DNA of 62,151 bases, the filler included, from Jimgerdemannia flammicorona (Eukaryota), in the NCBI GenBank assembly GCA_003990765.1. It is 2 parts of 2 records of this genome, joined end to end, with 100 filler letters (N's around TTAATTAATTAA, not from the genome) between each part and the next. Parts side by side here need not be neighbours in the genome. Positions count along the whole stretch, not along the records: positions 1 to 31,028 come from RBNJ01000412.1; 1 more part is not named here. The stretch is one strand, 5' to 3'. This document shows, piece by piece, positions 173-29,475 of this stretch. How positions within the stretch are numbered: the first letter of the stretch is position 1; each line of letters begins with the position of its first letter. Under the pieces are notes generated by a model. The model did no database searches. It was not told the DNA's origin and saw only the letters and a program-made list of their open reading frames with translations. Both the position numbers and the translations under genes were made by a program.

Positions 173-211
173 TTATGAAAGCTGCCGCTTTCATAAGCTA
201 AGCCTCTCATC

Positions 212-225
212 GGGTATAAATACCC
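212..225 (+). promoter_or_regulatory. TATA-like box inside the palindrome GGGTAT-AA-ATACCC in the element 5' UTR
   Basis: TATAAAT at 215-221; retained in copy 2 (about 5368-5381) and partly in copy 4 (about 19480). Confidence 0.35.
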
Positions 226-321
226 TTCTCCATTATTTTTTCGTTGCTCAAACAAAGGTCACGTGGCCCGCGTTTCACAATTTCACAAACACAAACAAAT
301 ACACCTCTGCCTATTTCGGCA

Positions 322-1820
322 ATGTCAGCCACCTCCTCCATCATCAGCGATGACGGCAATGCTACCCGCCTTTTTGCATGCTTCGGCGCCTCTCTCCGCT
401 GTGCTGAATGTCGCGGCGTCAGTCTTCTCTCTCTCGGCTTCAGCGAGGGTAGCCTTACGGCGATGTGCAGGTCGTGCGGGGATGCACGCCCGATTTCATC
501 ATATTTATCTTCTCTGCATGATGCGGAAGATGACGAAGAGATCGCGATCTCTTCCGATTCGGACCACGACGCCCAGCGCCCCCCTACTCTCCCACGCCCC
601 CACCCCTCAACTGGAACAAGCGTGGTCGCCCGAACACTAGTTTGGGTATGACCCCGATGGCCGGTCATGCGGGCCCCTCGGCCGACCCTGATCTGGCCAC
701 AGAGATGGCCACAATAAGGAAGCAGATCTCAGATCTGCTGACTCAAGTGGCCGAACTGGTCAAGATCAACGCCCACCTGATGGCGCAGATTGCTGCACGT
801 CATGCGCCCACTGCCCCCTCGTCATCTGATGCTCCTTCGGGAAGTACCCCCACCGCCCCTTCCACAACCACTCCCCCCAAGTCCCCAGCCCCCCCTCCTA
901 CTGGTCCTGCTGCGAACACGCGGTCGAAGGCCCAGAAGCGAGCGGACAAATGGGCCACTAAAGCTGCTACCTCGCAGTCTGGTGTACCGCCAAAGGAGGT
1001 AACTCCCATGGCCGTGCCTCCGGCTGCTAAAGCCGCGCTCTCTAAAAAGGGCAAGACCAAGGTTCCCGGACCAGTGCCCCAGGTTATGCCTGCGGGACCC
1101 AGTGCCGCCGGCCCGTCTTCGTCCTCTGCTTCGACCCCCGCCCCCCCCAAATCATACACCACCGCCGCCAAGAAGGTTTCTATCAAGGATAGGACCCAGA
1201 CCTACCCCAAGACGGAAAGGGCAGCTGCTGCCGCCGCCCTTTCGCGCATGACCCATAAGCTGACCTCTCATTTGTCGCCAACTGAGAAGGGTGCTAGGCT
1301 TCAGCGCATTTACGTCGACGGATTTGCCCATCTCAAGATCGGGCAGATCCGGAGGAACTTGTACAACATCCATATGATATTATCAAAAGTTCTCAATATT
1401 TCGTACATCTTGGCGTCGACCATCGAATTCCTGCTCCGCCCTGATTATGTCACGGCATTCCAAAAGAAGATGAAGGCGCTTGAGTTCTCGGTACTGTCGG
1501 CCTGGAACCCTGCGCTCCCACGCAACAAGAACGCCACAGAGGCTGTGAAGGCACGGGTACTCCAATTATTCCATGCTCGGGTCCAGCAGTTGGCAGGTGA
1601 AGCCACTGCAAAGAGGCCCGAGGTGCAGACCTTCTATCAAGCTTGGGCCGCAGAACTCGGCCTTGCTCTCCTCTCCCCCGCCTCCCCATTGGCCAGCCCT
1701 GCTTCGAAGGCAGGTGGTACTGTGGCTGTGACTAGTGAGATGGCGATGGATTTGGAAGCTGAAGCTTCCGCCTCAGGTGCTTCCCATGCTATTGGCGCTA
1801 ACGCGCCCGGCCCACAATGA
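322..1820 (+). pseudogene. ORF1 of the telomeric retroelement (about 499 aa reconstructed: C4 zinc ribbon, coiled-coil-like segment, Pro/Ala/Ser-rich linker, C-terminal globular domain)
   Basis: ORFs 244-651 and 642-1820 join if one C is restored in the C-run near 580; copies 2 and 4 are in frame there. Contains CAEC...CRSC and LATEMATIRKQISDLLTQVAELVKIN. Confidence 0.8.
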
Positions 1821-4800
1821 GAGTCGGGTTTTTCAATGCACACGGACTACCCCAGGACAAGTTCGATGTGCTCAGTCAGTTGATTGGTCCTGCCCTCGAC
1901 ATTCTTTTCATATGTGAAACATGGCACATCCCGCTGCGTCCCTCTCTGCTCATTCATATGTCTTCCCCTCCGGCATCGCACAGGATAATGGGTCATCAGA
2001 ATGGTGGTCTCGTGGTTCTTGTGTCCAACTATTTCGCCCCCCTCATTTCCAGGTCCTCCGCTGACCCCTTCCTTATCCAGCTCATGTTCCAGAGCTTGGC
2101 TTTGGTTGGGGTTTATACCCCCCCCTCTCTTCCCATTGGTAGCTTTCGTGATCTGGTGTCTGGACCCTTTCCGGGTAAGGCCCTTTTGATTGGTGACATC
2201 AATACCCGTTTCGGTGTTTGCCTTGGTGACGTCAACTCTGGTCCTCATGATCAGATGGATGTCATCGACACCTCCCTGATGACGTGGTCGCTGAACCACC
2301 TGACCCCGGTGGCTGGATCCATACGCGTTGACCACGCGTTCGCAACCGCGTCCCTCCACGTGTCCCTCACCTGCTCCACCCCTCCTGTCACTACTGATCA
2401 CCCCTCCCTCCTCACCATCTCCTTCCCCTTCTCCCCCTCGCCGGTTGCTGCCTTGGCTGGTGTCCGTCGTTACTCTGCGAGATATCTGACCGATCCGTTT
2501 GTTCAAGCCCACCTTCGGGAATCAGCAGATATTGTTTGTGATACCGTTGTCAGGTCCATCTACTCTGTCAGGGACCACATCGCCGGCTTTTGTTCTGTGG
2601 AAGATCGCCAGCAGTTTGTGGATTCCCTTGATGCTCTTTTGACCTCTGGTCTATAGTCAGTCTGTGAGGACATTCTTGGCTCATATGACGCAAGAGAGAT
2701 CAGGACGGTGCCGCTCCCTCAGCGGGACCTTCTTTGCAGTGCATCTTCGGTCTCTGATACCATCCGTGGTTTCAAGCGAGTGTATCGCTCCACCCCCTCC
2801 GCACCTCTCCAATCTCGCTCCCCCAATGTCCCAATGTTCAATGATGTGGTTGCTCACTTTCCCACCATCTTCGGCCAGCCTGACACCTCCCTCCGCCTCG
2901 ATGACTCTGAGGATGTCTTTCCCATCGGCGTGGGCACTCTTGGACTGCAGTCTTGGTTTGACCAACCTGAGGTTTGGAGGGCTGTCTGCAGCTACCCTCT
3001 CTCAAAGGCATGTGGTGCCGACTCCTTGCATGTCCGGATCCTTCGGGTGATGGCAGGTAAGTGAGACACCCCCTGTAGCCTTTCGAAGGCCCTCTCGTTC
3101 TTCTTCCAGATGTGTGTGGTTTGGGGGCTCACTCCCCGCTGCTGAAACTCTGCCATCATCACCCCGGTCCCCAAGAAGGAGGAATCGCATACGATCAATA
3201 GATTTCGCCCTATTGCTCTGACTGAAATGTTTCGTAGACTCTTCGAGTGGTGCTTGGAAGGATACATCAAAAGCCGAAGTGATCTGACAGAAATGTTGCA
3301 CTGCCAAGGTGGCTTCCGAACCTGCTTCTTGTCCCTTTCCCATGTCTTATTATCGCACAAGACATGGGTCAAAGGATGGGGCCACCGTGTCTTCCTAGAC
3401 CTCTGGCAGGCGTATGATCGAGTCCCCCTCCAGTGCATTCTTTCCCGCCTTGAGGCACAAGGTGCCGATGCGGCCCTCCTTAGCATTATCCGAAGCCTGT
3501 TCAATCACTGTTCTTATCAGGTGTTTGTTAATGGCCTTGTCACCCCTTTGATCCCCACTGAGCATGGCCTCTTCCAGGGCTCCCTCCTCTCCCCTTGGCT
3601 ATTCGATGTTTTCATCGACCCCCTTGCCGCCTCCTTTAATGAACAGTTCAAGGAGTACGACTTCCCCCTTGGGCTCTTCTTTGCTGATGATATCGCCCTT
3701 ACCCCCCGCACTGCCGCGGAAGAACAAAGGATTGTTGATTTTTGCGAAGATTGGCTACGGGTGAACGGTATGGAGCTCAACCCCAAGAAGTGTGGTCATG
3801 TTGGCCCGGCTGACTGTACTGTGCTGATTGGGGGAGAACCCTGCCCACGATCCACCTCCTACGTATACCTGGGTGTGCCATATACCAACAAAGGGTTTGA
3901 CTTTGTCAACCTTGCATTGCAGAATACGGCAAAGGCAGAACGAACTCTTGGGTTCTGCCATGCCTGTGGTCCCCTCTGGTCGCCAATGGTCAAGTAGGCC
4001 ATCGTACGAACATTCATCCGGTCTCAGCTGGAGTATGGCCTTCCCCTTCTACGTGCTTCCTGTCCGGCTACTACCATGGGGCTTCAGGTGTTGAAGCGTC
4101 CCGAGCAGGTCTTTGATGACGCTGTCGCTTGGGCGGTTGGATTTTCAGGCGGGCCTCTGCTTGGCAGTCCGATTCTTGGCCTCCCTTCCTTCCTTTGTCA
4201 AACGTCTGACCTCTGCTGCATATTCCAAGCCCATCTGGATTGGTGTAGCAAGTCTGGCAACAACCCCATCGGCCCCCTTAGCGAGCACTTTGTCATGCAT
4301 CCCCCGGGTTCAATCATTGACAAATTCCAGTGCTGGACCTCTTGGCTTGACTTCCTCAACTGGTATTGGGACCTTCGTCCCCAAGTCCACAAGACTCGCT
4401 CGCTCCGCTCCTTCCTCCAGTCCTTCCTCCGGGATCAGCTGCTTCAGGAATGGGCCTCCTCCTCCCAGGCTCTCGTTTGGTATATCACCCCCAAAGGCCG
4501 CTTGCGGTCGCAGGGCGCTGATCGCATCCTTTCCTTCCTCCCCCGGCTTGTGCGTTCTGCCCTTGCCTAGCGTTATGGCTATTTTGGCCAACCCTGCCCC
4601 TGCCCCTGTGGAGATAAGTTTCATCATGGCCATCTCCTCAGGTGCGGTCTTCTCGACGGTTCATATTCTGCTTTCCGAGGTTCCTCAGATCGAGATGAAC
4701 AGCTCGACTGATTTACCAATGACGAATGGCAGGAGGAACTTCGCGTCTACCTGCTTCATGCTCTTCACGAGACAGCCTACCACGCTATCGACACCATGTG

Positions 4801-4863
4801 TAATTCTGGTGGCCACCTCGTGGTGGGTTTTGCCTGACCGAGATTACGAAGATGCTTGGGTGA
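1817..4863 (+). pseudogene. ORF2: APE endonuclease + reverse transcriptase + C-terminal Cys/His motif (about 1015 aa; six in-frame stops, one late frameshift)
   Basis: APE motifs FFNAHGL, ICETW, GVYTPP, GDIN, RVDH, TDH. RT motifs FRPIAL, QGGFR, FLDLWQAYD, GLFQGSLLSPWLF, FFADD, NPKKC, YVYLGV. Stops at 2654, 3062, 3143, 3995, 4568, 4709. Confidence 0.93.
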
Positions 4864-5239
4864 TCGAGCGATCACACATTTTTTTTATTTCTTTCTTTCC
4901 CCTCATTCGACTTGATTGGTTCCCCCGTTGTTGAGAGTGCATTGAGTTATTCATCTCATGTCAGTCATTTGGCGTTCAGTTGTCGATACAGTTCCTGTAG
5001 TTGGTGCCAGGCGTTTGTGAATTATATCTTAGCATTTCTTTTCTTTGCTTTTCACATTTTATTATCTTTACAGCCATGACAAAATGGTTTTATCCAGCCC
5101 ATCCATAGGGTGGTCATCTCTCTGGCCTTTGTTTTGTACTTCCTAGCTAGTTGTTTGCTTCGCTGGCCTTGTTTTGCTTTTCTCATCTTAGGAGTCTTTG
5201 CCGTTTATTGCTCCGATGTATCTTGTCTTCTCTATAATG

Positions 5240-5245
5240 AATAAA
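5240..5245 (+). promoter_or_regulatory. AATAAA polyadenylation-type signal 13 nt upstream of the CCTAA tail
   Basis: AATAAA sits at the equivalent position in every element 3' end (also about 10395, 13233, 19344, 24414). Confidence 0.5.
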
Positions 5246-5263
5246 TCCTTACTTGAAGCCTAA

Positions 5264-8200
5264 TTTAAGACACTCACATCATTTCCCCATTTTGCTACAC
5301 TCGCTTTATGGCCTAAAGCTATTCCACATTAAGAAAGCAGTCACTTTGATTAGCGAAGCCTCCCATTGGGTATAAATACCCCCTTCCCTATTATTTTTTC
5401 ATTGCACAAATAAAGGTCAAGTGATCCGTATTTCACAATTTCACAAATACAAACAAATACACCTTTGCCTATTCCGGCAATATTGGCCACCTCCTCCGTC
5501 GTCAGCGATAATGGCAATGCCACCTGCCTCTTCGCGCACTTCGGCGCCTCTCTTTGCTACGCTGAATATCGTGACATCAGTCTCCTTTCTCTCGGCTTCG
5601 GTAAGGGTAGCCTTACGGCGATGTGCAGGTCATGTGGGATGCACAACCGATATTGGCGTATTTATCTTCTCTGCATGATACAGAGGATAATGAAGAGATC
5701 GCGATCTCTTCTGATTTGGACCACGATGCCCAGCACCCCCCCTTCTCTTCCACACTCCTGCCCCTCAATCGGAACAAGCACGGTCGCCTGAACACTAGTT
5801 TGGGCATGACCCCGACTGCTGGTCGTGCAGGCCCCTCAGCCGACACCGATCTGGTCATGGAGATGGCAACGATGAAAAACCAGATCTCGGATCTGCTGAC
5901 TCAAGTGGCCGAACTGGCAAAGATAAATGCCCAGCTGATGGCGCAGCTTGCTGCACAGTCTGCGCCTACTGCTCCCTCATCATCTGGTGCTCCTTCGGGT
6001 AGTACCCCCACCGCCCCTTCCACATCTGCCCCCCCCAAGTCCTCGGCCCCCCCTCCTCCTGGTTCTGCCGCTAACATACGGTCGAAGGCCCAGAAACGAG
6101 CGGACAAGCAGGCCGCTAAAGCTGCCGCGTCATAGTCTGGTGCACCGCCAAAGGAGGCAACTCCCACAGCTATGCCTCCGGCTGCCAAAGCTGTGCTCCC
6201 TAAAAAGGGCAAGGCCAAGGCTCCCGGACCAGTGCCCTAGGTTATACCTGTGGGACCCAGCACCGCCGGTCCGTCTTCGTCCTCCGCTTCAGCCCCTGCC
6301 CCCCCTAAATCGTATGCCGCTGCCGCCAAGAAGGTCTCTATTAAGGATAGGACCCAGGCCTACCTCAAGACAGAAAGGGCAGCTGCCACTGCTGCCCTTT
6401 CGCATATGACCTGCAAGCCAACCTCTCACCTGTCACCAACTGAGAAAGGGGCTAGGCTGCAGTGTGTTTACATCAATGGATTTGCCTATCTTAAGATTGG
6501 GCAGATCCAGAAGAACTTGTATGATGTCCATGTGATGTTGTCAAAGGTTCTCAATATGTCGTATGTCTCGGCGTCGACCATCAAATTCCTTCTCTACCCT
6601 GATTATGTCAGGGCATTCCAAAAGATGATGAAGATGCTCAGGTTCTCAGTGCTGTCAGCCTGGGACCCTGCGCTCCCACGCAACAAGAATGCCATGGAGG
6701 CTGTGAAGACATAGGTACTCCAATCCTTTCACGCTCGGGTCCAGCAGTTGGCAGGCGAAGCCACTGCGAAGAGGTCTGAGATGCAGACCTTCTAACGAGC
6801 TTGGGACGCGGAACTCGGCCTTACTCTCCCCTCCCCCACCTCCCCGTCGGCCGGCCCTGCTTCAAAGGCAGGTGGTACTGTGGCCATGACTGGTGATATG
6901 GTGATGGATTTGGAAGCTGAAACTTCTACTTCAGGTGCTTCCCACGCTGTTGGCGCTAACATGCCCAGCCCACAATGAGAGTCGGGTTCCTCAATACATA
7001 CAGACTACCCTAGGACAAGTTTGATATGCTCAGTCGGTTGATTGGTCCTGCCCTCGACGTTCTTTTCATATGTGAAACGTTGCACATTCTGCTGTGTCCC
7101 TCTCCGCTCATTCACATGTCCTCTCCTCCGGTATCGCACAGAATCGTGGGTCACCAGAATGGTGGTCTCGTGGTCCTCATGTCAAACTGCTTTGCCCCTC
7201 TCATTTCTGGGTCCTCCGCCGACCCCTTCCATATCTGGCTCATATTCCAGGGTCTGGCTTTGATTGGGGTTTATACCCCCTCCTCTCTTCCTATTGGTGG
7301 CTTCCGTGATCTTGTGTCTGGTCCCTTTCCAGGTAAGGCCCTCCTGATCGGTGACATCAATACCCGCTTCGGTGCCTGCCTTGGTGACATCAACTCTGGC
7401 CCCCGCAACAGGATGGATGTTATCGATACCTCCCTGATGATGTGGTCATTGAACCACCTAACCCCAGTGGCTGGATCCCCGCATGTTGATCACCATTCGC
7501 CACCGCGTCCCTCCACGCGTCCCTCACTTGCTCCACCCTTCCTGTCACTACCAACCACCCCTCTCTCCTTACTGTCTCCTTCCCCTTCTCCCCCTCGCTG
7601 GTTGCTGCCTTGACTGGCATCCGCCGTTACTCTGCGAGATACATAACCGATCCAGTTGTTCAAGCTCATCTCTGGGAATCAGCAGATATCGTTTGCGATA
7701 CTGTTCTCAGGTCCATCTACTCTGTCCGAGATCACATCGCTGGCTTTCGCTCTGTGGAAGATCGCCAGTAGTTCATGGATTCTCTGGATGCCCTTTTGAC
7801 CTTTGGTCTATAGTCAGTTTGTAAGGACATTCTTGGCTTGTATGACGCAAGGGAGATTAGGGAAGCGCCGCTCCCCTGGCGGGACCTTCTTCACAGTGTA
7901 TCTTCGGTCTCTGATACCATTCGTGGTTTCAAGCGAGCATACTGCTCTATCCTCCTTACTTCTCTCCAATCTCGCTCCCCTAATGTTCCGGTGTTCGACG
8001 ACGTGGTTGCTCACTTTACCGCTATCTTTGGTCAACCGAACGCCTCCCTCCGCCTCGATGACTTTGAGGATGTCTTCTCCCTTAGTGTGGGTGCTCTTGG
8101 ACTGCAGTCTTGGTTTGACCAGCCTGCAGTTTGGAGGGCTATCTGCAGCTACCCCCTCTCCAAGGCCTGTGGCACCGACTCCTTGCATGTCCAGATCCTT

Positions 8201-10418
8201 CGGGTGATGGCAGGCGAGAAGGACACTCCCTGTAGTCTGTCGAAAGCCTTGTCCTTTTTCTTCCAGATGTGCATGGTTTGGGGGCTCACTCCCTACCGCT
8301 GGAACTCTGCCATCATTACCCCAGTTCCTAAGAAGGAGGAATCGTGTACAATTGATGGATTTCACCCTATCGCTCTGACAGAAATGTTTCATCGACTCTT
8401 TGAGCGGTGTTTGGAAGGTTACGTCAAGAGCCGAAGTGGCCTGACAGAAATGTCATGCTGCCAAGGTGGCTTCCGAACCTGCTTCTTGTCTCTCTCTCAT
8501 GTCTTTCTTTCGCATGAGACATGGGCTAAGGGATGGGGTCGCCATGTCTTCCTTGACCTTCGGCAGGCATACGACCGAGTCTCCCTCAAGCTCATCCTTT
8601 CCCGGCTTGAGGCGAGAGGTGCTGATGCAGCCCTCCTTAGCATTATCCGAAGCCTGTTCAATCACTGTTCTTATCAAGTGGTTGTCAATGGCCTTGTCAC
8701 CCCTTCGGTCCCCACTGAGCATGGCCTCTTCCAGGGCTCTCTCCTCTCCCCTTGGCTCTTCGATATCTTTATTGATCCCCTCGCCTCCTCCTTTGATGAA
8801 CAATTCAAAGAGTACAACTTCCCCCTCAGGCTCTTCTTTGCCAATGATATCGCCCTCACCCCCTGCACTGCCACAGAGGGGTAACAGATGATTGACTTCT
8901 GTGAGGACTGGCTTCTGGAGAACAGTATGGAACTCAATCCCAAGAAGTGCGGTTATATTGGCCCTGCTGACTATACTGTACTGATTGGGGGAGAGCCCTG
9001 CCCACGACCCCCCTCTTACATGTACCTGGGCATGCCATACACTAACAAAGGATTTGACTTTGTCAGTCTTGCGTACAGAATGCGGCAAACACGGAACGAA
9101 CTCTTGGGTTCTGCCGTGCCTGTAGTCCTCTCTGGTCACCAATGGTCAAGCTGGCCATCCTACGTACATTCATCAGGCCTCAGCTGGAGTATGGCCTTCC
9201 CCTCCTATGAGCTTCCTGTCTGGTTACTACCACGGGGCTTCAGGTATTGAAGCATCCCAAGCAGGTCTTTGATGATGCTGTCGCTTGGGCGGTTGGATTT
9301 TCCGGCCGACCCTTGCTTAGCAGCTCAATTCTCAGCCTCCCTTCTTTCCTTCGTCGTACGTCCGACCTCTGCTGTATGTTCCAAGCCCACCTGGATTGGT
9401 GTAGCAAGTCCGGCAACAACCCCATTAGCCCCCTTAGCGATTGCTTTGTCACGTGTCCCCTGGGTTCTATTATTGACAAGTTCCAGCATTGGACCTCTTG
9501 GCTTAACTTCCTCGACTGGTACTGGGACCTCCGTCCCCAGGTCCGCAAGACTCGCTCGCTCCGCTCCTTCCTCTAGTCCTTCCTCTAAGATCAGCTATTG
9601 CAGAATTGGGCTTCCTCTTCCCAGGCTCTCATTTGGTATATCACCCCCAAAGGCCGCTTACCATCGCGGGGCGCTGACCACGTCCTCTCCTTCCCCCCCC
9701 AGCTTGTGCATTCTGCCCTTGCCTGGCGCTATAGCTACTTTGGCCAACCCTGCCCCTGCCCCTGTGGAGATAAGTTTCATCGTGGCCATCTCCTCAGGTG
9801 CGGTCTTCTTGACAGTTCATATTCTGCATTCCAAGGTTCTTCTGATCGAGATGAACAACTCGATTGGTTTACCAATGACAAATGGCAGGAAGAACTTCGT
9901 GCCTACCCTCTTCACGCTCTTCACAAGACAGCCTACCACGCCATTGACACCATATGTAATTCTGGTGGCCATCTCATGGTTGGGTTTTGCCTGACTGAGA
10001 TTACAAAGATGCTTGGGTGATCGAGCGATCGCACATTTTCTTTATTTCTTTCTTTCCTCTTGTTCCCCCGGTTGGTTCCCTCTTTGTTGAGAGCGTATTG
10101 AGTTATTCATCTCATATTAGCTATTTGGTGTTTAGTTGTCGATACAGTCCACGTAGTTGGCACCGGGTGAACATGTATTATATCTTAGCCTTTCTTTTCT
10201 TTGCTTTCTGTATTTATTATCTCTACGGCCATGACAAAATGGTTTTATCCAGCCCGTCCATAGGGTGGTCACCTCTCTGGCCTTTGTTTTGTACTTCTTA
10301 GCTAGTTGTTTACTTCGCTGGCCTTGCTTTGCTTCTCTCATCTTAGGAGTCTTTGTCTTTTGTTACTCTAATGTATCTTGTCTTCTCTACAATGAATAAA
10401 TCCTTACTTGAAGCCTAA
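5264..10418 (+). mobile_element. Telomeric retrotransposon copy 2 (full length, degenerate; ORF1 about 5483-6978, ORF2 6975-10020)
   Basis: Colinear with copy 1 over its whole length, with more stops and frameshifts; ends GAAG-CCTAA. Confidence 0.93.
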
Positions 10419-13256
10419 CCCTTCTCTCCCTCGCTGGTTGCTGCCTTGGTTGGTATCTGTCATTACTCTGCGAAATATCTGACCAATCCAGTCATTCAAG
10501 TATACCTTTGAGAATCAGTGGATATTGTTTGTAATAACATTGTCAGGTCTATTTACTCCGTTTGAGACCATGTTGCCAGCTTTTACTCTGTGGAAGATCG
10601 CCAGCAATTTGTGGATTCTCTCAACACTCTTTTGACCTCTGGTCTACAGTCAGTCTGTGAGGACATTCTTGACTTATATGACATAAGAAAAATTAGGACA
10701 GTGCTGCTCCACCAGCAGAACCTTCTTCATAGTGCATCTTTGGTCTCTGATGCCATTTATGGTTTCAAGCAAGCATACCACTCCACCCCCCCTGCCCACC
10801 TCCAATCTCACTCCCCTGCTATCTCAGTGTTTGATGATATGGTTGCTCATTTCACCACTATCTTCAGTCAGCCGAATACCTCCCTCTGCCTTGATGACTT
10901 CAAGAATATCTTTCCCTTCAGTATGGGTACTCTTGGACTGCAGGCTTTGTTTGACCAGCCTATGGTTTGGAGGGCTATCTGCAGCTACCCTCTCTCAAAG
11001 GCCTGTGGGGCCGACTCCTTACATGTCTGGATCCTTTGGGTGATGGCAGATGAGAAGGATACTTCCTGTAGCCTCTCCAAAGTCTTGTTCTTCTTCTTCC
11101 AGATATGTGTGGTTTGGAGGCTCACTCTCCACTTCTGAAACTCTACCAACATTACCCCAGTTTTTAAGAAAAAGGAATTGCAAATGATTGATGGTTTTCA
11201 CTATATTACTCTCACCAAAATATTTCGTAGACTCATCGAACAGTGTTTGAAAGGATACATCAAGAGCCAAAGTGGCCTGACAGAAAAGTCGCACTACCAA
11301 GGTGGCTTCCAAACCTGCTTCTCATCCCTCTCTCATATCTTGCTCTCATATGAGATGTGGGCCAAGAGATGGGTCTACCATATCTTTCTTGACCTCCAGC
11401 AGGCATATGATAGAGTCCCCCTCAAGCTCATTCTTTCTTAACTTGAGGTATGAGGTACTGATGCAGCCCTCCTTAGCATTATCCGCAGTCTGTTCAACCA
11501 TTGTTCCTATCAGATAGTTGTTAATGGCCTTGTCACCCCTTCAGTCTCCACTGAGTATAGCCTCTTTTAAGGCTCCCTCCTCTCCCCCTGGCTCTTTGAT
11601 GTCTTTATCAACCCCCTCGCCACCTCTTTTGAAGAACAGTTTAAGGAGTATGACTTTCCCCTAGGGCTTTTCTTTGCTGATGATATTGCTCTCAACCCCT
11701 GTACTACTATAGAAGGGCAGAGAATAATTGACTTCTGTGAGGACTAGCTCTTGGTGAATGGTATGGAACTCAATCTAAAGAAGTACAGTTATATTGGCCC
11801 TGTCAAGTATACTGTATGGATTAGGGGCAAGCCCTGTCTGCAACCCCCCTCTTATGTATATCTAGGCATACTGTACACTAACAAAGGGTTTGACTTTGTC
11901 ATTCTTGCATTATAGAATGTGGTGAAGGTGGAATGCACTCTTGAGTTCTGCTATACCTGTGGTCCCCTCTGGTCACCAATAGTCAAGCTGGCCATTATAT
12001 GGACTTTCATCTGACCTCAGCTGGAATATGGCCTCTCCCTTCTATGAGTCTCCTGCTCAGCTACTACTATGGGGCTTCAGGTGTTGAACTATCCTGAGCA
12101 GGTCTTTGATGATGCTGTTGCTAGGGCAGTCAGATTCTCTGGCTATCTCTTGCTTGGCAGCTCAATTCTTGGCCTTTCTTCCTTCTTTCATCATATGTTG
12201 GACCTCTGCTACATGTTCCAAGCCCATCTGGATTAGTGTAGTAAGTCTGATAACAAACCCATTAGCTCCCTTAGTAAGCACTTTATCATGCATCCTCTGG
12301 GTTATATAATTGACAAGTTCTGGCAATAGACCTCATGGCTTGACTTCCTTGACTAGTACTGGGACCTCCATCCCCAGGTCCACAAGACTTGCATGCTCTA
12401 CTTCTTCCTTCAGTCATTTCTCCTGGATCGGCTGCTGCAGGAATAGACTTTCTTATCTCAGGTGCTCATTCAGTACATCACCCACAAAGGCCGCTTGTGG
12501 TCCTGGGGCACCAATCATGTTCTCTCCTTCCCTCCCCCGGCTTGTGCACTCTGCACTAGCCTAGTGCTATGACTACTTTGGCTAACTCCACCCCTGCCCC
12601 TATGGAGATAAGTTTCATCATGGCCATCTCCTCAGGTGCGGTCTTCTCGATGGTTCCTATTTTGCATTCTGAGGTGATTCTGATTATGCTAAACAGCTTG
12701 ATTGATTTATTAGTGATAAATAGCAGAAAGAACTTCATGCCTACCCTCTTCACATTCTTCACAAGACAGTCTATCACACTATCGATGCTATGTGTAATTC
12801 TGGTGGCCACCTCATGGTCAGGTTCTATCTGACTGAGATTACGAAGATACTTGAGTAATCGAGCAATTGCATATTTTCTTTATTTCCTTCTTTCCACTCA
12901 TTCGCCTCAGTTGGTTCTCTTGTTGTTGAGAGTACATTGAGTTATTCATTTCATATTAGTCACTTGGTGTTTGGGTGTTGATATTATTTCCATAGTTGGT
13001 GCCAGGCATTTGTTTATTTTTTCTTAGTTTCTCTCTTTTTTACTTTTTGCATTTATTATCTTTATGGCTGTGACAAAATAGTTTTATCTAGTCCATCCCT
13101 AGAGTGGTCACCTCTCTGGCCTTTGTTTTGTACTTCCTTACTAGTTGTTACTTTGCTGGTCTTGTTTTGCTTTTCTCATCTTAGGAGTCTTTGCTGTTAA
13201 TTGCTCTGATATATCTTATCTTCTCTATAATGAATAAATTCTTACTTAAAGTCTAA
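10419..13256 (+). mobile_element. Telomeric retrotransposon copy 3 (5'-truncated just after the APE domain)
   Basis: Starts at the equivalent of copy 1 position about 2426; degenerate RT motifs (FFADD at about 11669); same 3' UTR followed by telomeric repeats. Confidence 0.92.
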
Positions 13257-13308
13257 CCCTAACCCTAACCCATAAATAAATTCTTTCTTGAAGCTTAACT
13301 CTAACCCT
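13252..13308 (+). repeat. Interstitial telomere tracts flanking a ~22-bp remnant of the element 3' end
   Basis: TCTAA-CCCTAA-CCCTAA-CCC / ATAAATAAATTCTTTCTTGAAG / CTTAA-CTCTAA-CCCT. Confidence 0.85.
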
Positions 13309-16302
13309 CTGATATTCCACCCCTCTGCCAGTCTCACTCAAATAAACACTAGCAGTCTTCTTTAAATTTATCAATCAAATATTAACTGGAATACTCATAC
13401 ATATCAAAACCTTAACTTTCTACTGAATGTTCTTAGCTCAATTATTTCACAACTCCTTCTCAGTTAATAAAGAGGAATTAAGATGCCAATATCCAGACCC
13501 ATCCCTACTTCTCTCAAATTGCTCATATATAATAAGCCCCAGTAGTCAGATAATAGACACTACTCAACTATTATAGGCTTCCAGATATCTAGCCCCCAAT
13601 AGTTTCCTATTAGCACTCAGTCAATTCTAGCCTCCTGGTCATATACCCAGTAAGTATAGACCCTCTTATCTCCCTACATTGCTCAGCCAGCATCTATAAA
13701 GGAGTTAAGTCACTCTATCTCCTCCTAACTCTCTAGACTACCACTCTTGCTCTCTGTATTTCTCACCTCATCTGTCCTATCCAACTATATCAAGCAAACT
13801 ATATTGAAGTCCCCTTTAAGCATCTTCACTTCTATCACTACAAGTACTCCACTATCTAAATGATTATCAATCTACTCTATACACTCACTTCTGACTATAG
13901 AATAGTAATAAGATCTGACCACAATGAACTCTCATTCTGGTTGATACTACTCACCTCAAACCAAATGATCCTTTCAGGTCCTGCTATCATATAATTCTCC
14001 TTGCCCTCTCTATATCAAAATTTCAACCTTGCTATTCTAGACTGGATCTCTACTCCATTCTCTCATCCACTCTTATTGCTCAGAGTCCTCCTATATCATA
14101 TATTCTACAGTAGAAAGAGATCAGTCTCTAATTCTTTTAACCAAGTAAAAATGTTATATTATCTCCCAGAACTCATCAAATTATTCACATTCAATGAGAA
14201 AATGTTAGTTGTACTATTCATAAGAAATAATATTGATATGGACATATCCTCCTCACAAATCTATATTCACTCTATCTATAGCTAGATCTAATCTATATTT
14301 AGCAGTAGTCTCAGCCTCCTCAACCTACTTGGTTTTCAGCCCAACCAATAGCTCATTCATCGAGTACAGCATCATTCTTTAACTTCATCTTCTTCCAGTA
14401 ATCTATGCAATCTCCTTTCCAAATTTCTAATCTTTACCATTCTTCTCACCAGAGCCTGAATGTTCTCTAGCTGCTACTGCCATTTCTACTTCTCTTGCAA
14501 CATCTATCTCATAGCTCTTCTCATCTAGATATACTATTAGTACCTTCTTTATTAGAGTCTCTACAACTCCCTTTCTTCTCATGATTCCTACCTAGTGCTC
14601 CTCACTGACCACTTAGATCTATATCACCCAACTCCTCAGTAACTAAGTTATTCATTGTCTGTCACATCCACTGCAGATTCCCAATCTCCTTACCCCCAGG
14701 GATTGCAAGTCAGCCAGCTCTAAGCATTATAGTATTTACTCTAGTACTTGCAGACTCATCCCACTCTTCCTCAGCGATATCCACCAACTCCTTCTCTCTA
14801 ACCCTAACTATTTATCTCACACTTACCATCTCAGATACTCTACATCTAACATGGCAAGTTCCCATCATCTCTACATCCTCACTAGTAGTTAGCTGGCTAC
14901 TCCAATCTTTCTTTTCTATATCTTCAACCTCCTCCTATACCTTGATCATAGAGAGCTTGATTCCTCTTCTCGTGGCCCCTCCTCATTTGCTTCAGTACCC
15001 ACCAAATCTCCACCCCTGACATTATCTCCTCTCAGCCTCTCCTCTTAAGCTTGGCTTCTCCCTCTCCTCTCCTTCAGCCTCACCAATAGCTCTTTCTGCC
15101 CCTTGTGCCCCTGAGCCCTCTTCTATATTCTCTTGTCCTCCTGAATGTACTTTCTATCTACTATCTCTAAGTGCATTGATTCTATATAATTCTGACATAC
15201 CTTGGCTCACTGCTTTATCACTCTACTGAGCTCCTTCAGTGCCTCCACCAAATCCTCCTCCTCCTCCATACTCCCTTTCACCCTTGTTACCTTGCAGACA
15301 ATTGCCCCCACATCTTCACTGAGACCAGTCTCTTGGCTTTCCTATAGCCTCTCTCTCAGCCAACCTGAGTCTGACCTCTATATCTCCAATTCTAAATGAG
15401 TTCCACTCTTAGACCTAGAAGCTGATATCTACCACCTCACCATACTCTGCCATAAACTCCTCTACCCTTCTCCTCATCTTGACTGTCATTACTGTGGGCA
15501 CTCTCTTTACTAGTAACTGATCCACTCTGGAGTCTCACCGCCATCAGAACCTCAATCTCTCCTATAGTCAGTCCTGTCTTGATTGTCTTCTTGAAAGGGG
15601 CAGTCTCCTCAAAGCCCACCTCCACTCTCTCCAGCCTCTTCAGGAACTTTACCAAGGCTGCTTCAGCCATCTGCTTTGAGAATAGCCTCAGAACTATTCT
15701 CACTGTCACCACTAAACTCTGGAAGCATAACATGACTGTGAACTCTGAGATAGACATCTTGAGTAATAGGACCACCACCAGCTCTGTTACACTATCAGTC
15801 AGATTACTGGTTTTCCTCAGCCTCTATAACCCAGTCCTACAATCAGTAGTCATATCTGGATTTTTTCCAGATCTCTAGTTACTCTTTGATCAGCAGTCCT
15901 ACTAGTTTATCTAGTTACTACTCCACCAGCTCTTCCACCTGCCAACAGAAATACTAATCCTCCAGCCCTTACTTACTTAAACTTTTTCTTACTGCTCTCC
16001 TATCCCACATCAGCTCCAATAGGTAATCTAATTATCTTCTCTTGTCTGCAAAACTCAGCCCCCATACCTGCACCAGACTGGCCACTACTACTCAACCCAC
16101 CATAACCTTCAGACTCTCTCAAAGCCCCTATCTCCAGTTTATACTCCCTTCTGCTGTATTGCCAGTCAAAGGCCCAAGATCTACCCATCTAGTATGCATA
16201 TTGGCTCACTTATTTATTGTCATATCCTTAGTAGCTTTCTTCAATAAATGATTCAAAAGTATGTTTTAAAGTTTGTATGATATGAATGTTAGTAGAGAAA
16301 GG
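13309..16302 (-). mobile_element. L1/Tx1-like LINE, 5' portion (5' UTR, ORF1, APE domain), degenerate
   Basis: Reverse complement aligns with 50830-53860; ORF1 peptide EAALVKFLKRLERVEVGFEETAPF is shared with other copies; family 5' end CTTTCTC. Confidence 0.8.
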
Positions 16303-18231
16303 TAAATTGTAAATAACATTATTATCTCCTAACTTGATCAATACAGAGTATTCAAAAGGATCATAAGTAGAAAACTATTCTCTATATGGCATTATATATT
16401 ATATAGCTCCAGTATCTATTAGCCAGACATTATTGTCATTAGTTGTATTGGTGCATTCATCATTACTACTTTTTGTTGAGTAAAAAGTGTCTCACTGACT
16501 AGGATTTATACATGACAGATTGGTGAATTTGGCTATAGATCTTACACTGCTTGTGGAACTGCTTATTATAGATATAGTTCTCATATTGATGAAATTAGCA
16601 GTGGAGCTAATATCTTATACCAAAAATAGATTATTACTTTTATTAGTTTTAGCAGTATTTGTATTGCTATACTTCTCTCAATAGTTCTTTCTACTACTCC
16701 CATAGTATCAGTATTGACTTTTATCACATTATTACTTATTCTCACCACTCTCCTTATTATTTTTCCAGCTATAGCATTGGTGATTTCTGTGTCCATACTT
16801 GCCACAGTACTTACAGTAACTATCATACTTAGTTGATTAACTAGACTGATTGTTGTATTGATTTTGAGTTTAGGTATATTGGACTTATTGAATGCACTTT
16901 TGATCTTATTTGCCACTACATCTATAAGACTCTTTAAAAGCATTTTCATTATTGTCAACATCATTTTCTTAGTGCATTTTCTTGTTCATAATACTCATTT
17001 AGTACTCCCAATAAATTGAATTAAATCAAATTTGATTCAAATTCGATTTAATTCAATTGAATCAAAGGTCTAATTTGATTTAAAAGTCAATTTGAACCCT
17101 ATTTTTCGAAATATAATAATCAATGAAAATATATCCAAATTTAATAATCTTTAGCCTGTTAGATTCTCCTATATAAGGGAAATCTAACAAGCTAAAGATT
17201 ATTAAATTTGGATATGTTTCATTGAGTTATTATATTTTGAAAAATAAGGTTCAAATTAGATCCTCAATTCAATTTAAATCAATTCGATTTGAATTTCATT
17301 CAAATTGAAAAATCTCCAATTTGATTTAATTTGAATTATCCTCAATTTGATTCAATTCAAATTGATTTGATTCAATTGAGAGCCCTAGGTTCATTATTAT
17401 GTAGGTGTAATCTAAGAAACTATCTTTCTTACATATAGCTGTAATGACAATATTATATATATTCAGAAGTCTTCTTGTAAGTACTATAATCTTATCTTCA
17501 TTACTAATGTAATCTGTAGATATACTGAGGAAATTCACTTGATTCATCAGATCATCAATATGACTGACATATTTATAGATACTCTTCTTTGGCTTCATTG
17601 AAAGATTGAATAGCTGAGATTTCAAGTAGAATTGATTCAACATAGATACTTATATATAATGCTTGTATATGGCTTCCCATACATTGTGAGCTGTTGTAAT
17701 ATACATTACAAGCTTCATTTGCAAGTTCAACAATATGAATGCAATCTCACATAATGCTTGGTAATTGTTTGCTAGATTGTAATCTTGAATTAGTACTTAT
17801 AGCTTCATATACTCTACCAAGCATATTCATAGAGAAGATATATTATATAAAATACCCAAATAGCATAGTCTTTTCCATCAAAGATCAGGATGGACCTCTT
17901 GACTGTATTAATACTAACAACCTAGACTATATTTCCTGTACCTATTGAGGTTACATCTATGAGAGAAATACTTGTGGTTAGTATGTCTATTTCTATACTT
18001 ATATTACTAGGCTAGTCTTCTGATATTTCTAGTATATATGTAGTATATTTAAAGAGGTGTTTTGCTATAGCCACTTAGCACTAGTGGGGCTCATAACCTT
18101 TGTTATAAAAAGAGAGATAATTTCATTGAAGTTACATAGATTGTATATTTCTCTATATTACTAATAAATAATATAAATCTGATAGAATGACACAAGGCCA
18201 CATGCTGGTATATTGAGTTGCCATCTCAACA
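16303..18231 (-). mobile_element. Ty1/copia LTR retrotransposon 5' fragment (LTR, PBS, gag, protease start)
   Basis: LTR TGTTGAG...TAACA (18231-18101), then GGTTATGAGCCC; gag-like YVSHIDDLMNQV...ISNEDKIIVL; protease VWLIDTGA at about 16403-16432. Confidence 0.85.
17000..17387. mobile_element. hAT-type foldback MITE inserted in copia gag
   Basis: Imperfect TIRs TAGTACTCCCAAT / ATTGAGAGCCCTA, degenerate 8-bp TSD (tactcatt/ggttcatt), central palindrome about 17090-17255, GATT/AATC-rich subterminal repeats. Confidence 0.75.
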
Positions 18232-18297
18232 TTTTATTTTATCATTATGATAATGTATCTTTTCTTCTTTACAATTAAATAAATTTAACTTCAAGAC

Positions 18298-18299
<2 letters not shown>
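18232..18299 (+). mobile_element. Diverged 3'-end relic related to the telomeric retrotransposon
   Basis: ATGTATCTTTTCTTCTTTACAATTAAATAAATTTAACTTCAAGACTA aligns with ATGTATCTTGTCTTCTCTATAATGAATAAATCCTTACTTGAAGCCTA. Confidence 0.6.
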
Positions 18300-18376
<77 letters not shown>

Positions 18377-19155
18377 GTTTTTTTTTTTTTTTTTTTTTTT
18401 TTTATAGTCACTTGGACTCCGTTCCTTTATTAATACCCATCTATCCCATATAAATACAGTAATCCCACCCCCTATCCAATCCCCCTAGGGGGACCCCTCC
18501 CCCCTACCCCTTTCCGACAAAAGACCACCTTGTCTAACACCATCGCCACCCTTCCACCACTCTGCTCACAGATCCTCACCACCAAACTGCGACGCCGACC
18601 CCCCTGAGGGCCCCAACCCACCCACCAACCAGTCAGCAGATCCCCCAACAGCTCCTCCCACCATAACACCTTCTCTCACAGCCCAAACCACTGACCCTTC
18701 TCAAATACAAAAAGCCAATGTCTAGCTAATCCCACTCATACTGCTAGTACCCACCCTACAGTGAGCCAACTATCACCCACCCCACCTACAAGCTGAGTTC
18801 GCAAGTCCCCCCAGTAGTCCCCCTCACCACCCAGCCTTCTTCCTATACCTAATCTATCCCCTATCTCAGTCCAAAACTCCCCCAAAACTTCACACTCTCC
18901 CAGCCAATGTTCTGGTGTCTGTACATGACCCTCAGCTCGCCTATCATCATAACACTCTTCACAGTTGAATCGTCCACCCTCTACCAAATACCCTGTGTGG
19001 AAATTCAGCATAATATTCCTCCTCAACATTCTCCACCATACCACCTAGAACTTGGGAGGCAGCCACCGCCATACCTCTGCACTCCAAGTCCAGATACCTG
19101 CCCAGTCCCACTCCTCGCCAATCCCAGCCACCTGCCAGCCACCTGGCCAAACTGC
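18300..19155 (-). mobile_element. 5'-truncated L1/Tx1-like LINE 3' end with ~104-nt poly(A) (relatively young)
   Basis: Poly(T) 18300-18403; ORF 18736-19044 carries the CCHC motif CEEC...EHWLGEC; 3' end GTCCAAGTGAC matches 44860-44870; CpGs retained. Confidence 0.88.
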
Positions 19156-19373
19156 TTTTGCATTACTGTCCTTATGACCATGATAAAATGGTTTTATCCA
19201 GCTCATCCATAGGGTGGTCACCTCTCTGGCCTTCATTTTATACTTCTTAGCTAGTTGTTTACTGCATTGGTCTTGTTATACTTTTCTCAACTTAGGAGTC
19301 TTTGCTATTTATTACTCTGATATATCTTATCTTCTCTATAATGAATAAATTCTTACTTGAAGTCTAACCATAA
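19153..19373 (+). mobile_element. 3' UTR fragment of the telomeric retrotransposon with degenerate telomeric tail
   Basis: Matches about 5047-5263; ends GAAG-TCTAA-CCATAA. Confidence 0.88.
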
Positions 19374-22300
19374 CCTAAGCCACTTATGTGATTTCTCTAT
19401 TTGGCTAGACTTGGCTTTACAGCCTAAACCTATTCCAAATTAAGAAAGCAGTCACTTTGATTAGCTAAGCCTCTCATCAGGTATAAACACTCCCCTTTTA
19501 AATTATTTTTTTATTGTACAACAAAGGTCATGTGACCTGTATTTCACAATTTCACAAATAAATACAATTATACCTTTGCCTATTCTGACAATATCAGCCA
19601 CCTCCTCCATCATCGGTAATGATGGCAATGCTACTTATCTCTTTGCGCACTTTAGCATCTCTCTCTACTACACTGAATGTCATGGTATCAGTCTTCTTTC
19701 TCTCAGCTTCAGTGAGGGTAGTCTTATGGTGATGTGCAGGTCATATGGAGATACATAACTGATATCAGCATATTTATTTTCTCTGTATAATATGGAAGAT
19801 AATGAGGATAATGTGATCTCTTCTGATTTGAACCATGATGCCAAGCACACTCCCTTCTCTCCTATGTTCCTGCTCCACAATTAGAATAAGCACAGTTACC
19901 TGAATACTAGTTTGGGCATAACCCTGACTACTAGTCATACAAACCCCTCAGCCAACCCTGATCTGATCATGGAGATAGCTATAATGAGAAAGCAGATCTT
20001 AGATCTGCTGACTCAAGTAGCCAAACTGGTCAAGATCAACACCTAGCTGATAGCGTAGCTTGCTGCATATTTAGCACCCACCACCCTCTCATCATCTGGT
20101 ACTCTTTCAGGAAGTACCCCTGCCACTCCTTACACACCCACCCCCCCCAAGTCTCCAGCCCCCCCTCTTACTGGTTCTGCTGTGAACATATGGTTGAAGG
20201 CCCAGAAGTAAGTGGACAAGTGGGCTACTAAAGCTATTACATTGTGGTCTAGTACATCACCAAAGGAGGTAACTCTCATGGTAGTACCTCTAGCCACCAA
20301 AGCTGCACCCTCTAAAAAGGGCAAGGCCAAGACCCCCAGGCCAGTATCTCAGGTTATGTCTCTGAGACCCAGTGCTGCTGGTCTATCTTCATTCCCTGCT
20401 TTTACTCCTGCCCCCACTAAATCATATGCTACTACTGCTAAGAAGGTTTCTATTAAATATAGGATTCAGGCCTACCTTGAGATGGAAAGGGCTGCTGCTA
20501 CTGCTACTCTTTTGTACATGATCTGCATACTGACCTCTCATTTGTCACCAACTGAGAGAGGTGCTCAGCTGTAGTACATTTATATTAATAGATTCACCCA
20601 TCTGAAAATCAGACAGATTTGGAAGAACTTATATAATGTCTATATGATATTGTCAACAGTTCTCAATATATCATATGTCTTGGCATCGACTATAAAATTT
20701 CTTCTCTGCTCTGATTATATCATGGCATTCCAAAAGAAGATAAAGGTACTTGGGTTTTCAGTACTATTGGCCTGGGACCCTGTACTCCTCTGTAATAAGA
20801 ATACTATAGAGACTATGAAAGTATAGGTACTCCAAACTTTCTATGCTCAGGTCCAGCAGCTAGCTGTCAAAGCCACTGTGAGGAGGTCTGAGATATAGAC
20901 CTTTTACAAGATGTGAGCTGTGGAACTTAGCCTCACCCTCCCCTCTCTTGCCCCTCTGTCAGCTGGACCTACTTTGAAGGCAGGTGGTACCATGGCCATG
21001 ACTGGAGAGATGGTGATGGATTTGGAGCTGAGGCTTCCTCTTCAGGTACTTCCCATGCTATTGGCACTAATGCACCTAGCCCATAATGAGAGTTGGGTTT
21101 TTTTCATTTATAATATATGGCACATTCTGCTGTATCCCTCTCTGCTCATTCATATATCTTCTTCTACAATATCATACAGGATTATAGGTCATCAGAATAG
21201 TGCTGACATAGTTCTCATGTCAAACTATTTCACCTCACTCATTTCCAGGTCCTCTGATGACCCCTTCTATATCTGGCTTATGTTTTAGGGCTTGGCTTTG
21301 GTTGGGGTTTATGCCCACTCCTCTCTACCCATTGGTGGGTTCTGTGATCTTATATCTAGCCCCTTCCCAGATAATACTCTTTTGATTGGAGACATCAATA
21401 CCCATTTTGGTATCTGCCTTGGTGACATCAACTCTAGTCCTAGAGATCAGATAGATGTTGTCAACACCTTCTTAATGACATGGTCATTGAATCACCTGAC
21501 CTTGGTGGCTAGATCCATATATATTGATCATGCATTCACCACCATATCCCTCCATGCATCTCTTACCTGCACTACTCCTCTTGACACCACCAACCACCCC
21601 TCTCTCCTCACTGTCTCCTTCTCCTTCTCCCCCTCACTGGTTGCTGCCTTGGTTGATATCTATCATTACTCTGTGAAATATCTGATCGATCTGGTCATTC
21701 AAGTATATCTTTGAGAATCAGTGAATATCATTTGTGATACCATTTTCAGGTCCATTTACTCCGTTTGAGATCATGTTGCCAGCTTTTGCTCTGTGAAAGA
21801 TTGCCAGTAATTTGTGGATTCTCTTGACACCCTTTTGACCTCTGGTCTACAGTCAGTCTGTAAGGACATTCTTGGCTCATATAACACAAAAGAAATTAGG
21901 ACAGTGCTGCTCCCCCAGTAGGATCTTCTTCCCAGTATATCTTTGGTCTCTGATGCCATTCACAGTTTCAAGCAAGCATACCACTCCACCCCCCCTGCCT
22001 CCCTCTAATCTCACTCTCCCTGTTTGATAATATGGTTGCTCATTTTACCACTATCTTCAGTCAGCTAAAACCTCCCTCCACCTTGATGACTTTGAGAATA
22101 TCTTTCCCTTCAGTGTGGGTACTCTTGGACTGCAGGCTTAGTTTGACCAGCCTATGGTTTGGAGGGCTATCTGCAGCTACCCTCTCTCAAAGACCTGTAA
22201 GGCCAACTCCTTGTATGTCCGGATCCTTTGGGTGATGGCAGATGAGAAGGATGCTCCCTATAGCCTCTCCAAAGTCTTGTTCTTCTTCTTCTAGATATAT

Positions 22301-29372: not shown

Positions 29373-29438
29373 TTTTATTTTATCATTATGATAATATATC
29401 TTTTCTTCTTTACAATTAAATAAATTTAACTTCAAGAC

Positions 29439-29440
<2 letters not shown>

Positions 29441-29475
<35 letters not shown>

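Follow-up and report, generated by a model that had tools for sequence, protein, structure and literature searches.

Mobile elements and chromosome-end maintenance are linked in nature chiefly through telomere-specific retrotransposons. Three sets of them are known: long interspersed nuclear elements (LINEs) with an apurinic/apyrimidinic-type endonuclease (APE) and poly(A) (TRAS/SART of insects), poly(A)-less elements encoding a restriction-like endonuclease (MoTeR/FoTeR of fungi), and endonuclease-less Penelope-like elements (PLEs) that pair with the telomeric overhang. The stretch analysed here, called the window throughout, comprises 62,151 nt from Jimgerdemannia flammicorona (assembly GCA_003990765.1) and joins parts of two records, positions 1 to 31,028 coming from RBNJ01000412.1. 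It opens with 172 nt of (CCCTAA)n, or 28.8 units, and this terminal tract identifies a left chromosome end read on the C-rich strand. Self-comparison resolves bases 1–29592 into (CCCTAA)n followed by a one-orientation array of a 5.1-kb LINE, hereafter the element, which encodes an open reading frame 1 (ORF1) protein and an APE-reverse transcriptase (APE-RT). Its 3′ ends abut telomere units in a fixed register, close behind AATAAA and without poly(A), and sequence comparison indicates that this poly(A)-less, telomere-abutting design is common to a clade. The clade thus has the body of an APE-type LINE together with the tail seen in the other two sets, and adds a conserved, testable trait in the form of a polyadenylation signal 0–15 nt from the junction. 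The reading favoured here, with a probability of roughly 0.55, is that the LINE is telomere-repeat-specific and that its reverse transcription begins on an RNA tail complementary to the telomere.

TRAS1 and SART1 of Bombyx mori (R1 clade) resemble the element in being telomere-repeat-specific and in carrying ORF1 plus an ORF2 with APE and RT, although their target is TTAGG rather than TTAGGG. The sense strand of TRAS is likewise continuous with the C-rich strand. In the published accounts, insertion takes place at one fixed bond of the telomere repeat, and both elements end in poly(A), a long one being needed by SART1 for accurate initiation (PMC7265360); poly(A) is found at 0 of 7 ends of the present element. 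The R1 clade is also listed among the RNase H-bearing clades of the I group (PMC4640811), whereas RNase H was undetected in the element's relatives. MoTeR1, FoTeR and Cnl1, fungal elements of the CRE clade, have a 3′ end that abuts a few CCCTAA/TAACCC units without poly(A), and further resemble the element in their asymmetric junctions, short interstitial tracts, head-to-tail end arrays and decayed copies (PMC12857005). They have a single ORF with a restriction-like endonuclease downstream of RT, in contrast to the N-terminal APE and separate ORF1 of the element, and the junction-adjacent AATAAA is absent from their description in the excerpt of PMC12857005. In the endonuclease-less PLEs (Athena, Coprina and a Zymoseptoria subtelomeric family), the 3′ telomere units point away from the chromosome end, and the tail has been proposed to pair with single-stranded telomere and so prime synthesis (PMC4522978; PMC8557442). 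These lack an endonuclease and have a PLE-type RT, whereas the element has a conserved APE and an RT aligning with L1 ORF2p.

Tx1-1_ACar of the green anole (Tx1 clade) is an APE-clade LINE tied to TTAGGG telomeres (PMC10088271), and target specificity is known from two APE clades, Tx1 and R1 (PMC4640811). Its host is a vertebrate, whereas the only named relative of the element is fungal (Calcarisporiella); the two were compared by description only. The HeT-A, TART and TAHRE elements of Drosophila share with the element head-to-tail terminal arrays with the 3′ end centromere-ward and the youngest copy at the tip. They are joined on through oligo(A) and take the place of telomerase repeats entirely (PMC7265360), whereas telomerase-type repeats cap the present array and separate its copies. 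A catalogue of telomeric retroelements names SART/TRAS, GilM/GilT, Zepp1, MoTeR1, Tx1-1_ACar and Athena (PMC10088271), and no fungal APE-type telomeric LINE was found in the full-text literature searched, the coverage of which excludes Repbase Reports, subscription journals and supplements. In no compared system is an APE-LINE body found together with a tail that abuts the telomere without poly(A) and an AATAAA next to the junction, and the present LINEs are apparently a telomere-specific group undescribed so far.

The 3′ junction in the window

The pattern AATAAATNNTTNCTTNAAG has seven matches in the window, all on the + strand and ending at 5258, 10413, 13251, 13293, 19362, 24432 and 24474; shuffles gave a mean of 0.47, and 0 of 100 reached seven. 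All seven ends read AATAAA, 13 nt ending in AAG, then (C/T)(C/T)TAA in constant register, with CCTAA, TCTAA or CTTAA directly after the match. No A-run follows any of them (0/7), a telomere unit standing where LINEs typically have a poly(A) or simple-repeat tail. In copy 1 the junction reads ...TAATGAATAAATCCTTACTTGAAG, then CCTAATTTAAG..., and AATAAA occurs once in the sense orientation (at 5240) and three times antisense. The junction pattern is real and far beyond chance. The features of the array, from the chromosome end inwards, are:

1–172, + strand: terminal (CCCTAA)n telomere tract; a few units near 84–125 are variant
173–5258, + strand: element copy 1, the youngest, GC 0.54, without about 65–80 nt of the 5′ end
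5240–5263, + strand: 3′ junction of copy 1, reading AATAAA, TCCTTACTTGAAG (13 nt), CCTAA, with no poly(A)
5269–10413, + strand: element copy 2, full length, 85% identity to copy 1; then CCTAACCC at 10414–10421
10419–13251, + strand: element copy 3, 5′-truncated at about element position 2254; then a 20-nt tract at 13252–13271
13272–13293, + strand: mini-element, the last 22 nt of the element only, with telomere units flanking both sides; duplicate at 24453–24474
13308–18299, + strand: first copy of a second family (fam2), preceded by a 14-nt tract at 13294–13307
18300–19150, − strand: poly(A) retroposon (fam3) in reverse orientation, T104 being its tail
19153–19362, + strand: 3′ fragment of the element, about 210 nt; then the 16-nt tract TCTAACCATAACCTAA at 19363–19378
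19379–24432, + strand: element copy 5, full length, old, GC 0.43; then a 20-nt tract at 24433–24452
24453–24474, + strand: duplicate of the mini-element; then the CCTAA tract at 24475–24479
24480–29569, + strand: second copy of fam2, split at 29441–29559 by fam3 (T33 plus 85 nt)
29570–29592, + strand: oldest telomere tract, ACTAACCCTAACCCTAACCCTAA, 23 nt; AT-rich subtelomeric DNA from 29593

The initial annotation had reported seven 3′ ends of one pattern, without poly(A) and in one register. The absence of an A-run (after 7/7 ends), the register (AAG then YYTAA at 7/7) and the orientation, with the 3′ end facing the centromere, are all borne out, and the seven ends do exist, but only five are independent. 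Bases 10420–18332 and 21623–29473 are duplicates with 92% identity, so the junctions at 13256 and 24437 represent one event, as do those at 13298 and 24479. Copy 3, its mini-element and its fam2 are accordingly DNA copies of copy 5 and its neighbours, and copy 3 is no independent insertion.

A sixth independent junction is provided by fam2. The body of this family ends in ...AATTAAATAAATTTAACTTCAAGACTA, followed by T33 or T104, the tail of a reverse-inserted fam3. An exact target-site duplication of 14 bp, TAACTTCAAGACTA, borders the inner fam3 on both sides (29427–29440 and 29560–29573), and with fam3 read out, the fam2 end becomes AATAAATTTAACTTCAAG then ACTAACCCTAACCCTAACCCTAA, at 29552–29592. 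The resulting register (AATAAA, TTTAACTTCAAG, ACTAACCCTAACCCTAACCCTAA) is the same as that of the element. The last ~48 nt of fam2 are ~80% identical to the element's 3′ tail, and only that tail is held in common: tblastn of the element ORFs against fam2 detected no coding similarity, and a Pfam scan of 20 open frames from fam2 and the inner 30–62 kb gave nothing relevant, with one weak LrgB match below cut-off. This distribution suggests that the ~48-nt tail is itself the functional unit. Alternatively, fam2 could be an old relative of which only the CpG-poor terminal stretch is still recognisable.

All copies of the element and of fam2 within 1–29592 lie on the + strand behind the terminal (CCCTAA)n. 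GC content drops from 0.54–0.56 at the tip to 0.43 and lower inside, which places the youngest copies outermost. At the six independent junctions the proximal telomere tracts are 5–23 nt long (6/6), and the terminal tract is at least 172 nt. Differences between copies are transitions over transversions at ~6:1, with C>T and G>A dominating older copies most strongly at CpG. Classical repeat-induced point mutation (RIP) was considered as the source of the C>T variants and rejected, because transitions peak at CpG rather than CpA and the (CpA+TpG)/(ApC+GpT) index in element copies is 1.4–1.5. The decay seems to be of the methylation type, with the host methylating and deaminating repeats, and this decay explains the C>T variants of CCTAA at the junctions. 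TTTAA, the 5 nt directly behind the CCTAA of copy 1, may likewise be a decayed CCTAA.

The 5′ ends are variably truncated, ranging from the loss of ~65–80 nt in copy 1 to the ~210-nt fragment and the 22-nt mini-element. Two truncated 5′ junctions overlap a telomere unit, by CCCT in one and TTA/TAA in the other; the CCCT microhomology is that of copy 3, the truncation of which may be a healed break rather than a retrotransposition truncation. Both full-length copies start with YYTAAG(A/C)CAC right after the telomere tract (5264–5275 and 19363–19385). A cDNA of such a copy would end in ...CTTA-3′, resembling a telomere end, which, to judge from these two cases, might help telomerase to cap it. 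A TATA-like box, GGGTATAAATACCC, lies ~45–120 nt inside the element 5′ end, at 215–228 in copy 1 and 5377–5390 in copy 2, with a decayed form in copy 5 at ~19480. As the box is kept in the slightly truncated copy 1, the RNA start must lie upstream of it.

Coding content and relatives of the element

ORF1 of copy 1 (648–1820; 390 aa) has no Pfam match. ORF2, encoding the APE-RT, spans 1817–4570 and reads as 917 aa with four in-frame stops given as X; the other window copies are also broken by stops or frameshifts, and no intact copy is present in the window. The ORF1 stop and ORF2 start overlap as CAATGA in copy 1 (1817–1820), copy 2 (6975) and two relatives, L008 (2219) and L003 (1997), and as TAATGA in copy 5 (~21085). 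The conserved (C/T)AATGA overlap suggests termination-reinitiation coupling of the two frames across the clade. ORF2 is colinear with relatives of ~1000 aa at 26–35% identity, and its RT domain is of the LINE type (RVT_1, E = 3.5e-19 in copy 1).

Retention of the APE catalytic motifs, as the initial annotation had stated, was confirmed for all the residues it named: copy 1 has N7, E34, Y100, G126-D127-I-N129, D172-H173 and T-D194-H195. In an alignment of 30 sequences, no variation is seen at N7, E34, Y100, D127, N129, D194 and H195 or in the RT motifs, including A623-D624-D625, and hardly any at D172 and H173. The endonuclease match was obtained with a profile of these 30 sequences and not with single-domain phmmer. 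The profile is colinear with L1 ORF2p over APE and RT (E = 1.4e-48), and also matches the R2 RT (2e-39) and the isolated L1 endonuclease (1vyb; E = 2.4e-6); no R1-clade endonuclease chain (TRAS1, R1Bm) is among its matches at E ≤ 0.01. In copy 1 alone, Pfam PF03372 is weak (E = 0.006, below cut-off), and phmmer with the APE domain against solved structures gave 0 matches at E ≤ 1. Pfam found no RNase H in six intact relatives, only RVT_1 and one weak Exo_endo_phos match, and downstream of RT a CCHC-type motif, C-terminal in the relatives, is all that the alignment consensus contains. No PD-(D/E)xK family appeared in Pfam scans, which did not include a pattern scan for the RHD...E...D motif. 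The N-terminal APE with conserved catalytic residues is unlike the CRE clade, which has no APE, and the endonuclease-less PLEs. The architecture APE-RT-CCHC without RNase H fits the L1/Tx1 group, and, since the L1 endonuclease is matched, no R1-clade chain is, and RNase H is absent from the search results, these sequences likely belong to a clade other than R1.

A protein search covering ~5.8 billion proteins returned ~70 relatives at E < 1e-25, of which the only named one is from the fungus Calcarisporiella thermophila. A metagenome scan of loci returned 80, the 12 closest having 24–33% identity, and a scan of viral contigs found no relative. In 10 of these 12 closest loci, a short tract of C-strand telomere repeat follows AATAAA or ATTAAA at a distance of 0–15 nt on the sense strand; none of the 12 has a run of at least 12 A. 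The junctions, on the sense strand, read:

L008: AATAAATTCCGTAAAG, then CCTAACCCTAACCC...
L001 (two ends): AATAAAGCTCGTTAAT, then CCTAACCCT
L005: ...GTAACT, then CCTAACCCTAACCC
L007: ...GTCAAT, then CCTACCCTAACCCTAA
L002: ATTAAATAAGACCTTAAAG, then CCTAA...
L010 (two ends): the tract begins CCCTAA...
L006: the tract is CCCTACCCT and begins 6 nt after the signal
L003: TAACCC-CCCTAACCCTAA; the tract begins 6 nt after the signal
L004: AATAAACC-CCCTAACCCTAACCC; the tract begins 0–2 nt after AATAAA
L011: AAACCC-CCCTAACC...

No such 3′ end occurs in L009, in more than 660 nt between ORF2 and the contig end, or in L012. Tracts in the relatives are at most 28 nt long, and within any one family the junction does not vary. 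Across the 61.5 kb of the closest loci, AATAAA occurs 17 times on the sense strand, ~11 of these at the junction, versus 49 times antisense, and any given stretch of 21 positions would contain one by chance with a probability of 0.006. Ten of the 12 loci carry no G-strand motif; L009 and L012 have a single isolated match each. Six independent window junctions and 10 of the 12 closest relatives, all in one orientation, thus place the element in the telomere-repeat-specific class. Among the 68 more distant loci, no telomere-repeat run was found by the pattern used, and a later count gave a single CCCTAACCC in their 283 kb.

The RT tree has 61 rows, 20 of the 80 loci having been dropped for an RT match with an end-to-end span of <200 residues. 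Its 11 telomere-ended rows fall in a 15-row group (SH-aLRT 82) within a 17-row set (95). The telomere-end label changes twice on the tree versus 10.4 times in shuffles, and 0 of 500 shuffles were as low. L015, a neighbouring lineage in the 17-row set and the nearest conventional relative, has AATAAA, 27 nt and then poly(A). Both ORFs are intact in L008, L003 and L001, and the clade is therefore probably active somewhere; the same three loci make the mechanism directly testable. In L004, at least seven tandem units of ~30 nt, each with CCCTAACCCT, lie downstream of the 3′ junction (4486–4710) and are reminiscent of the arrays of telomere-like repeats found at the 5′ ends of MoTeR and FoTeR. The contig of L008 begins with (GATTA)4 at 1–21, on the sense strand and upstream of the element 5′ UTR.

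Proposed priming of new copies and its alternatives

In the favoured reading, transcription would run through the one sense-strand AATAAA, and cleavage would occur at or within the flanking CCTAA(CCCTAA)n, so that the RNA gains a short telomere-complementary tail before any poly(A). Cleavage normally takes place 10–30 nt downstream of AAUAAA. With the signal only 0–15 nt from the junction, this spacing would put cleavage at or in the telomere tract, too far downstream to fall inside the element, and in L004, L003 and L006 the transcript could hardly avoid extending into it; each CUAA would also offer a pyrimidine-A cleavage site. Central to the scheme is a transcript predicted to end in CUAACCCUAA. 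A G-strand 3′-OH would pair with this tail and prime reverse transcription internally, whereby the poly(A) would be skipped and the register fixed. The likeliest source of the 3′-OH is nicking of TTAGGG by APE, which is favoured because the nuclease residues are conserved; otherwise it would be a natural or eroded chromosome end. Recognition by the reverse transcriptase probably relies on the ~48-nt tail; this would account for the presence of that tail on the unrelated fam2 body. The end of the cDNA, whether full length or truncated, would then be capped by telomerase at 3–4 nt of microhomology. New copies would be added outward at the chromosome end and, as the sense strand runs on into the C-rich telomere strand, the array would grow youngest-at-tip. 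The RNA 3′ end, the base pairing, the primer source and the telomerase capping are all inferred from the arrangement of the sequence. The initial annotation had likened the 3′ end to a telomerase template, which may stand as an analogy, and had argued that a G-strand 3′-OH, at a nick or at the chromosome end, would give the observed orientation, for which the logic is sound. Its mechanism appears reasonable and gains comparative backing from the sequences of the relatives, but the poly(A) expected from AAUAAA-directed processing was left unaddressed.

Several observations weigh against priming on such a tail. As AAUAAA-directed cleavage is coupled to polyadenylation, initiation would have to be internal, upstream of the poly(A), for which other retroelements provide a precedent (PMC11167929). 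The junction is not seamless in L003 (TAACCC-CCCTAA), L004 (AAACC-CCCTAA) and L011 (AAACCC-CCCTAA); extra-C junctions are not expected from fresh pairing, and fit an inherited template or unpaired end-to-end priming. The interstitial tracts are all very short (5–23 nt in the window, ≤28 nt in relatives), which is not what a random nick in a telomere of at least 170 nt predicts; the probability of six tracts this short from random nicks in a 170-nt tract is estimated at ~6e-6. Short proximal tracts can also arise by later loss, and long interstitial telomere tracts are reported to be fragile in Pyricularia (PMC7367193). For the relatives, metagenome assembly itself favours short repeat tracts. 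Judged from their sequences, the window copies are all dead, so that APE activity here would be historical at best, and the array was partly built by DNA duplication and not by retrotransposition.

The short tracts also lend some plausibility to a doubtful but possible alternative, in which no endonuclease acts: the natural 3′ overhang of a telomere that has lost its cap or become critically short would pair with the RNA tail and prime synthesis, the element healing eroded ends and APE being dispensable. If the chromosome end were the primer, each tract would be as long as the telomere was when the copy was added, and tracts of 5–23 nt at 6/6 independent junctions, set against a terminal tract of at least 172 nt, would record nearly lost telomeres. 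The strictly terminal array, ordered by age, would follow as well, and the 22-nt mini-elements between telomere units look like aborted additions extended by telomerase. The concept has been published for endonuclease-less PLEs (PMC4522978), and has also been proposed for Drosophila HeT-A/TART. Against it, the APE catalytic columns do not vary among 30 sequences that share ~30% identity, which points to a nuclease in use. TART and TAHRE also keep APE, so this conservation is not decisive. The short tracts can moreover be explained otherwise, given the fragility of long ones (PMC7367193), and tract length has changed after duplication: the tract behind the mini-element is 14 nt in one duplicate (13294–13307) and 5 nt in the other (24475–24479), which implies that length can change once a tract is internal.

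An RNA that ends in ...GAAG plus poly(A) would need no pairing at all if APE nicked only TTAGG^G and the RT recognised the ~48-nt tail and started at the last templated base, as in a "stringent" LINE; the fixed register would then be due to nuclease specificity and not to a template-like tail. The 13 nt between AATAAA and the junction do allow cleavage exactly at the element junction, the tail common to fam2 suggests 3′ tail recognition, L003, L004 and L011, with their extra Cs, have junctions that resemble unpaired end-to-end joining, and SART1 starts at the exact 3′ UTR end given a long poly(A) (PMC7265360). This course is nevertheless unlikely, as the tract begins 0–2 nt after the signal in L004 and 6 nt after it in L003 and L006, where cleavage before the tract is impossible at usual spacing, and as the first tract unit varies by family (CCTAA, CCCTAA, extra Cs), contrary to the prediction from a single conserved nick site. 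Far less probable still is inheritance at the DNA level only, by which segmental duplication, unequal exchange or break-induced replication would have multiplied one ancestral junction, the register then being uninformative on priming. The 92% duplicates do carry two junction pairs, and telomere-driven recombination of this kind is described in MoTeR arrays (PMC7367193). The other junctions, however, have different downstream neighbours (a full-length 5′ end, a truncated body, a mini-element, fam2, subtelomere), different tract lengths and different 5′ ends, and the same design recurs in ten unrelated families from other samples, by which DNA-level inheritance as a complete explanation is largely refuted.

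Priming on the telomere-complementary tail can be extended, tentatively, to a wider picture: a widespread undescribed APE-LINE clade, probably fungal and confined to chromosome ends, which would use a CCUAA(CCCUAA)n tail as a telomerase-like template and preferentially rescue nearly lost telomeres, with the non-coding fam2 hitch-hiking on the 48-nt tail. If true, an endonuclease-bearing LINE would have converged on the priming logic of telomerase and endonuclease-less PLEs, with its polyadenylation signal moved against the telomere junction and the chromosome extended 5 kb at a time. The case raises the questions of how LINE RTs choose their start site, whether a nuclease is needed at a chromosome end, and whether such elements back up telomerase at critically short telomeres. 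Additions of the element would also explain the origin of long subtelomeric arrays with short interstitial telomere tracts, which are known sources of chromosome-end instability in fungi.

Duplications and the inner half of the window

The outer fam3 copy runs on for ~750 nt and then joins the element fragment, a join that suggests unequal exchange between two fam3 insertions. A plausible history of the array would begin with such an exchange, followed by a terminal break in the distal copy that was healed at an ...AGGG end. A related fam3 copy lies at 44134–44916 and ends in A39.

Positions 30000–62151 form a graveyard of old repeats, with fam2-like segments in both orientations. By tblastn of 106 relatives against the window, one other LINE RT remnant only was found, at 42703–43479. 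Fifteen inner frames scanned gave no Pfam family above the curated cut-off; the weak LrgB match (59697–60113) lies below it. A 21-nt tandem repeat at 39063–39170 contains CCTAACCCT and was considered as a string of aborted additions, but is too degenerate to interpret. Two 44-nt N runs (31029–31072 and 31085–31128) adjoin an A34 run at 31129–31162, and T117 occupies 62035–62151; these are possibly assembly gaps or long homopolymer tails. An inverted duplication with 85% identity pairs 31161–33417 with 37615–35364, and arrays of a 14-nt satellite are found at 33345–33578, 34707–34821 and 35364–35438.

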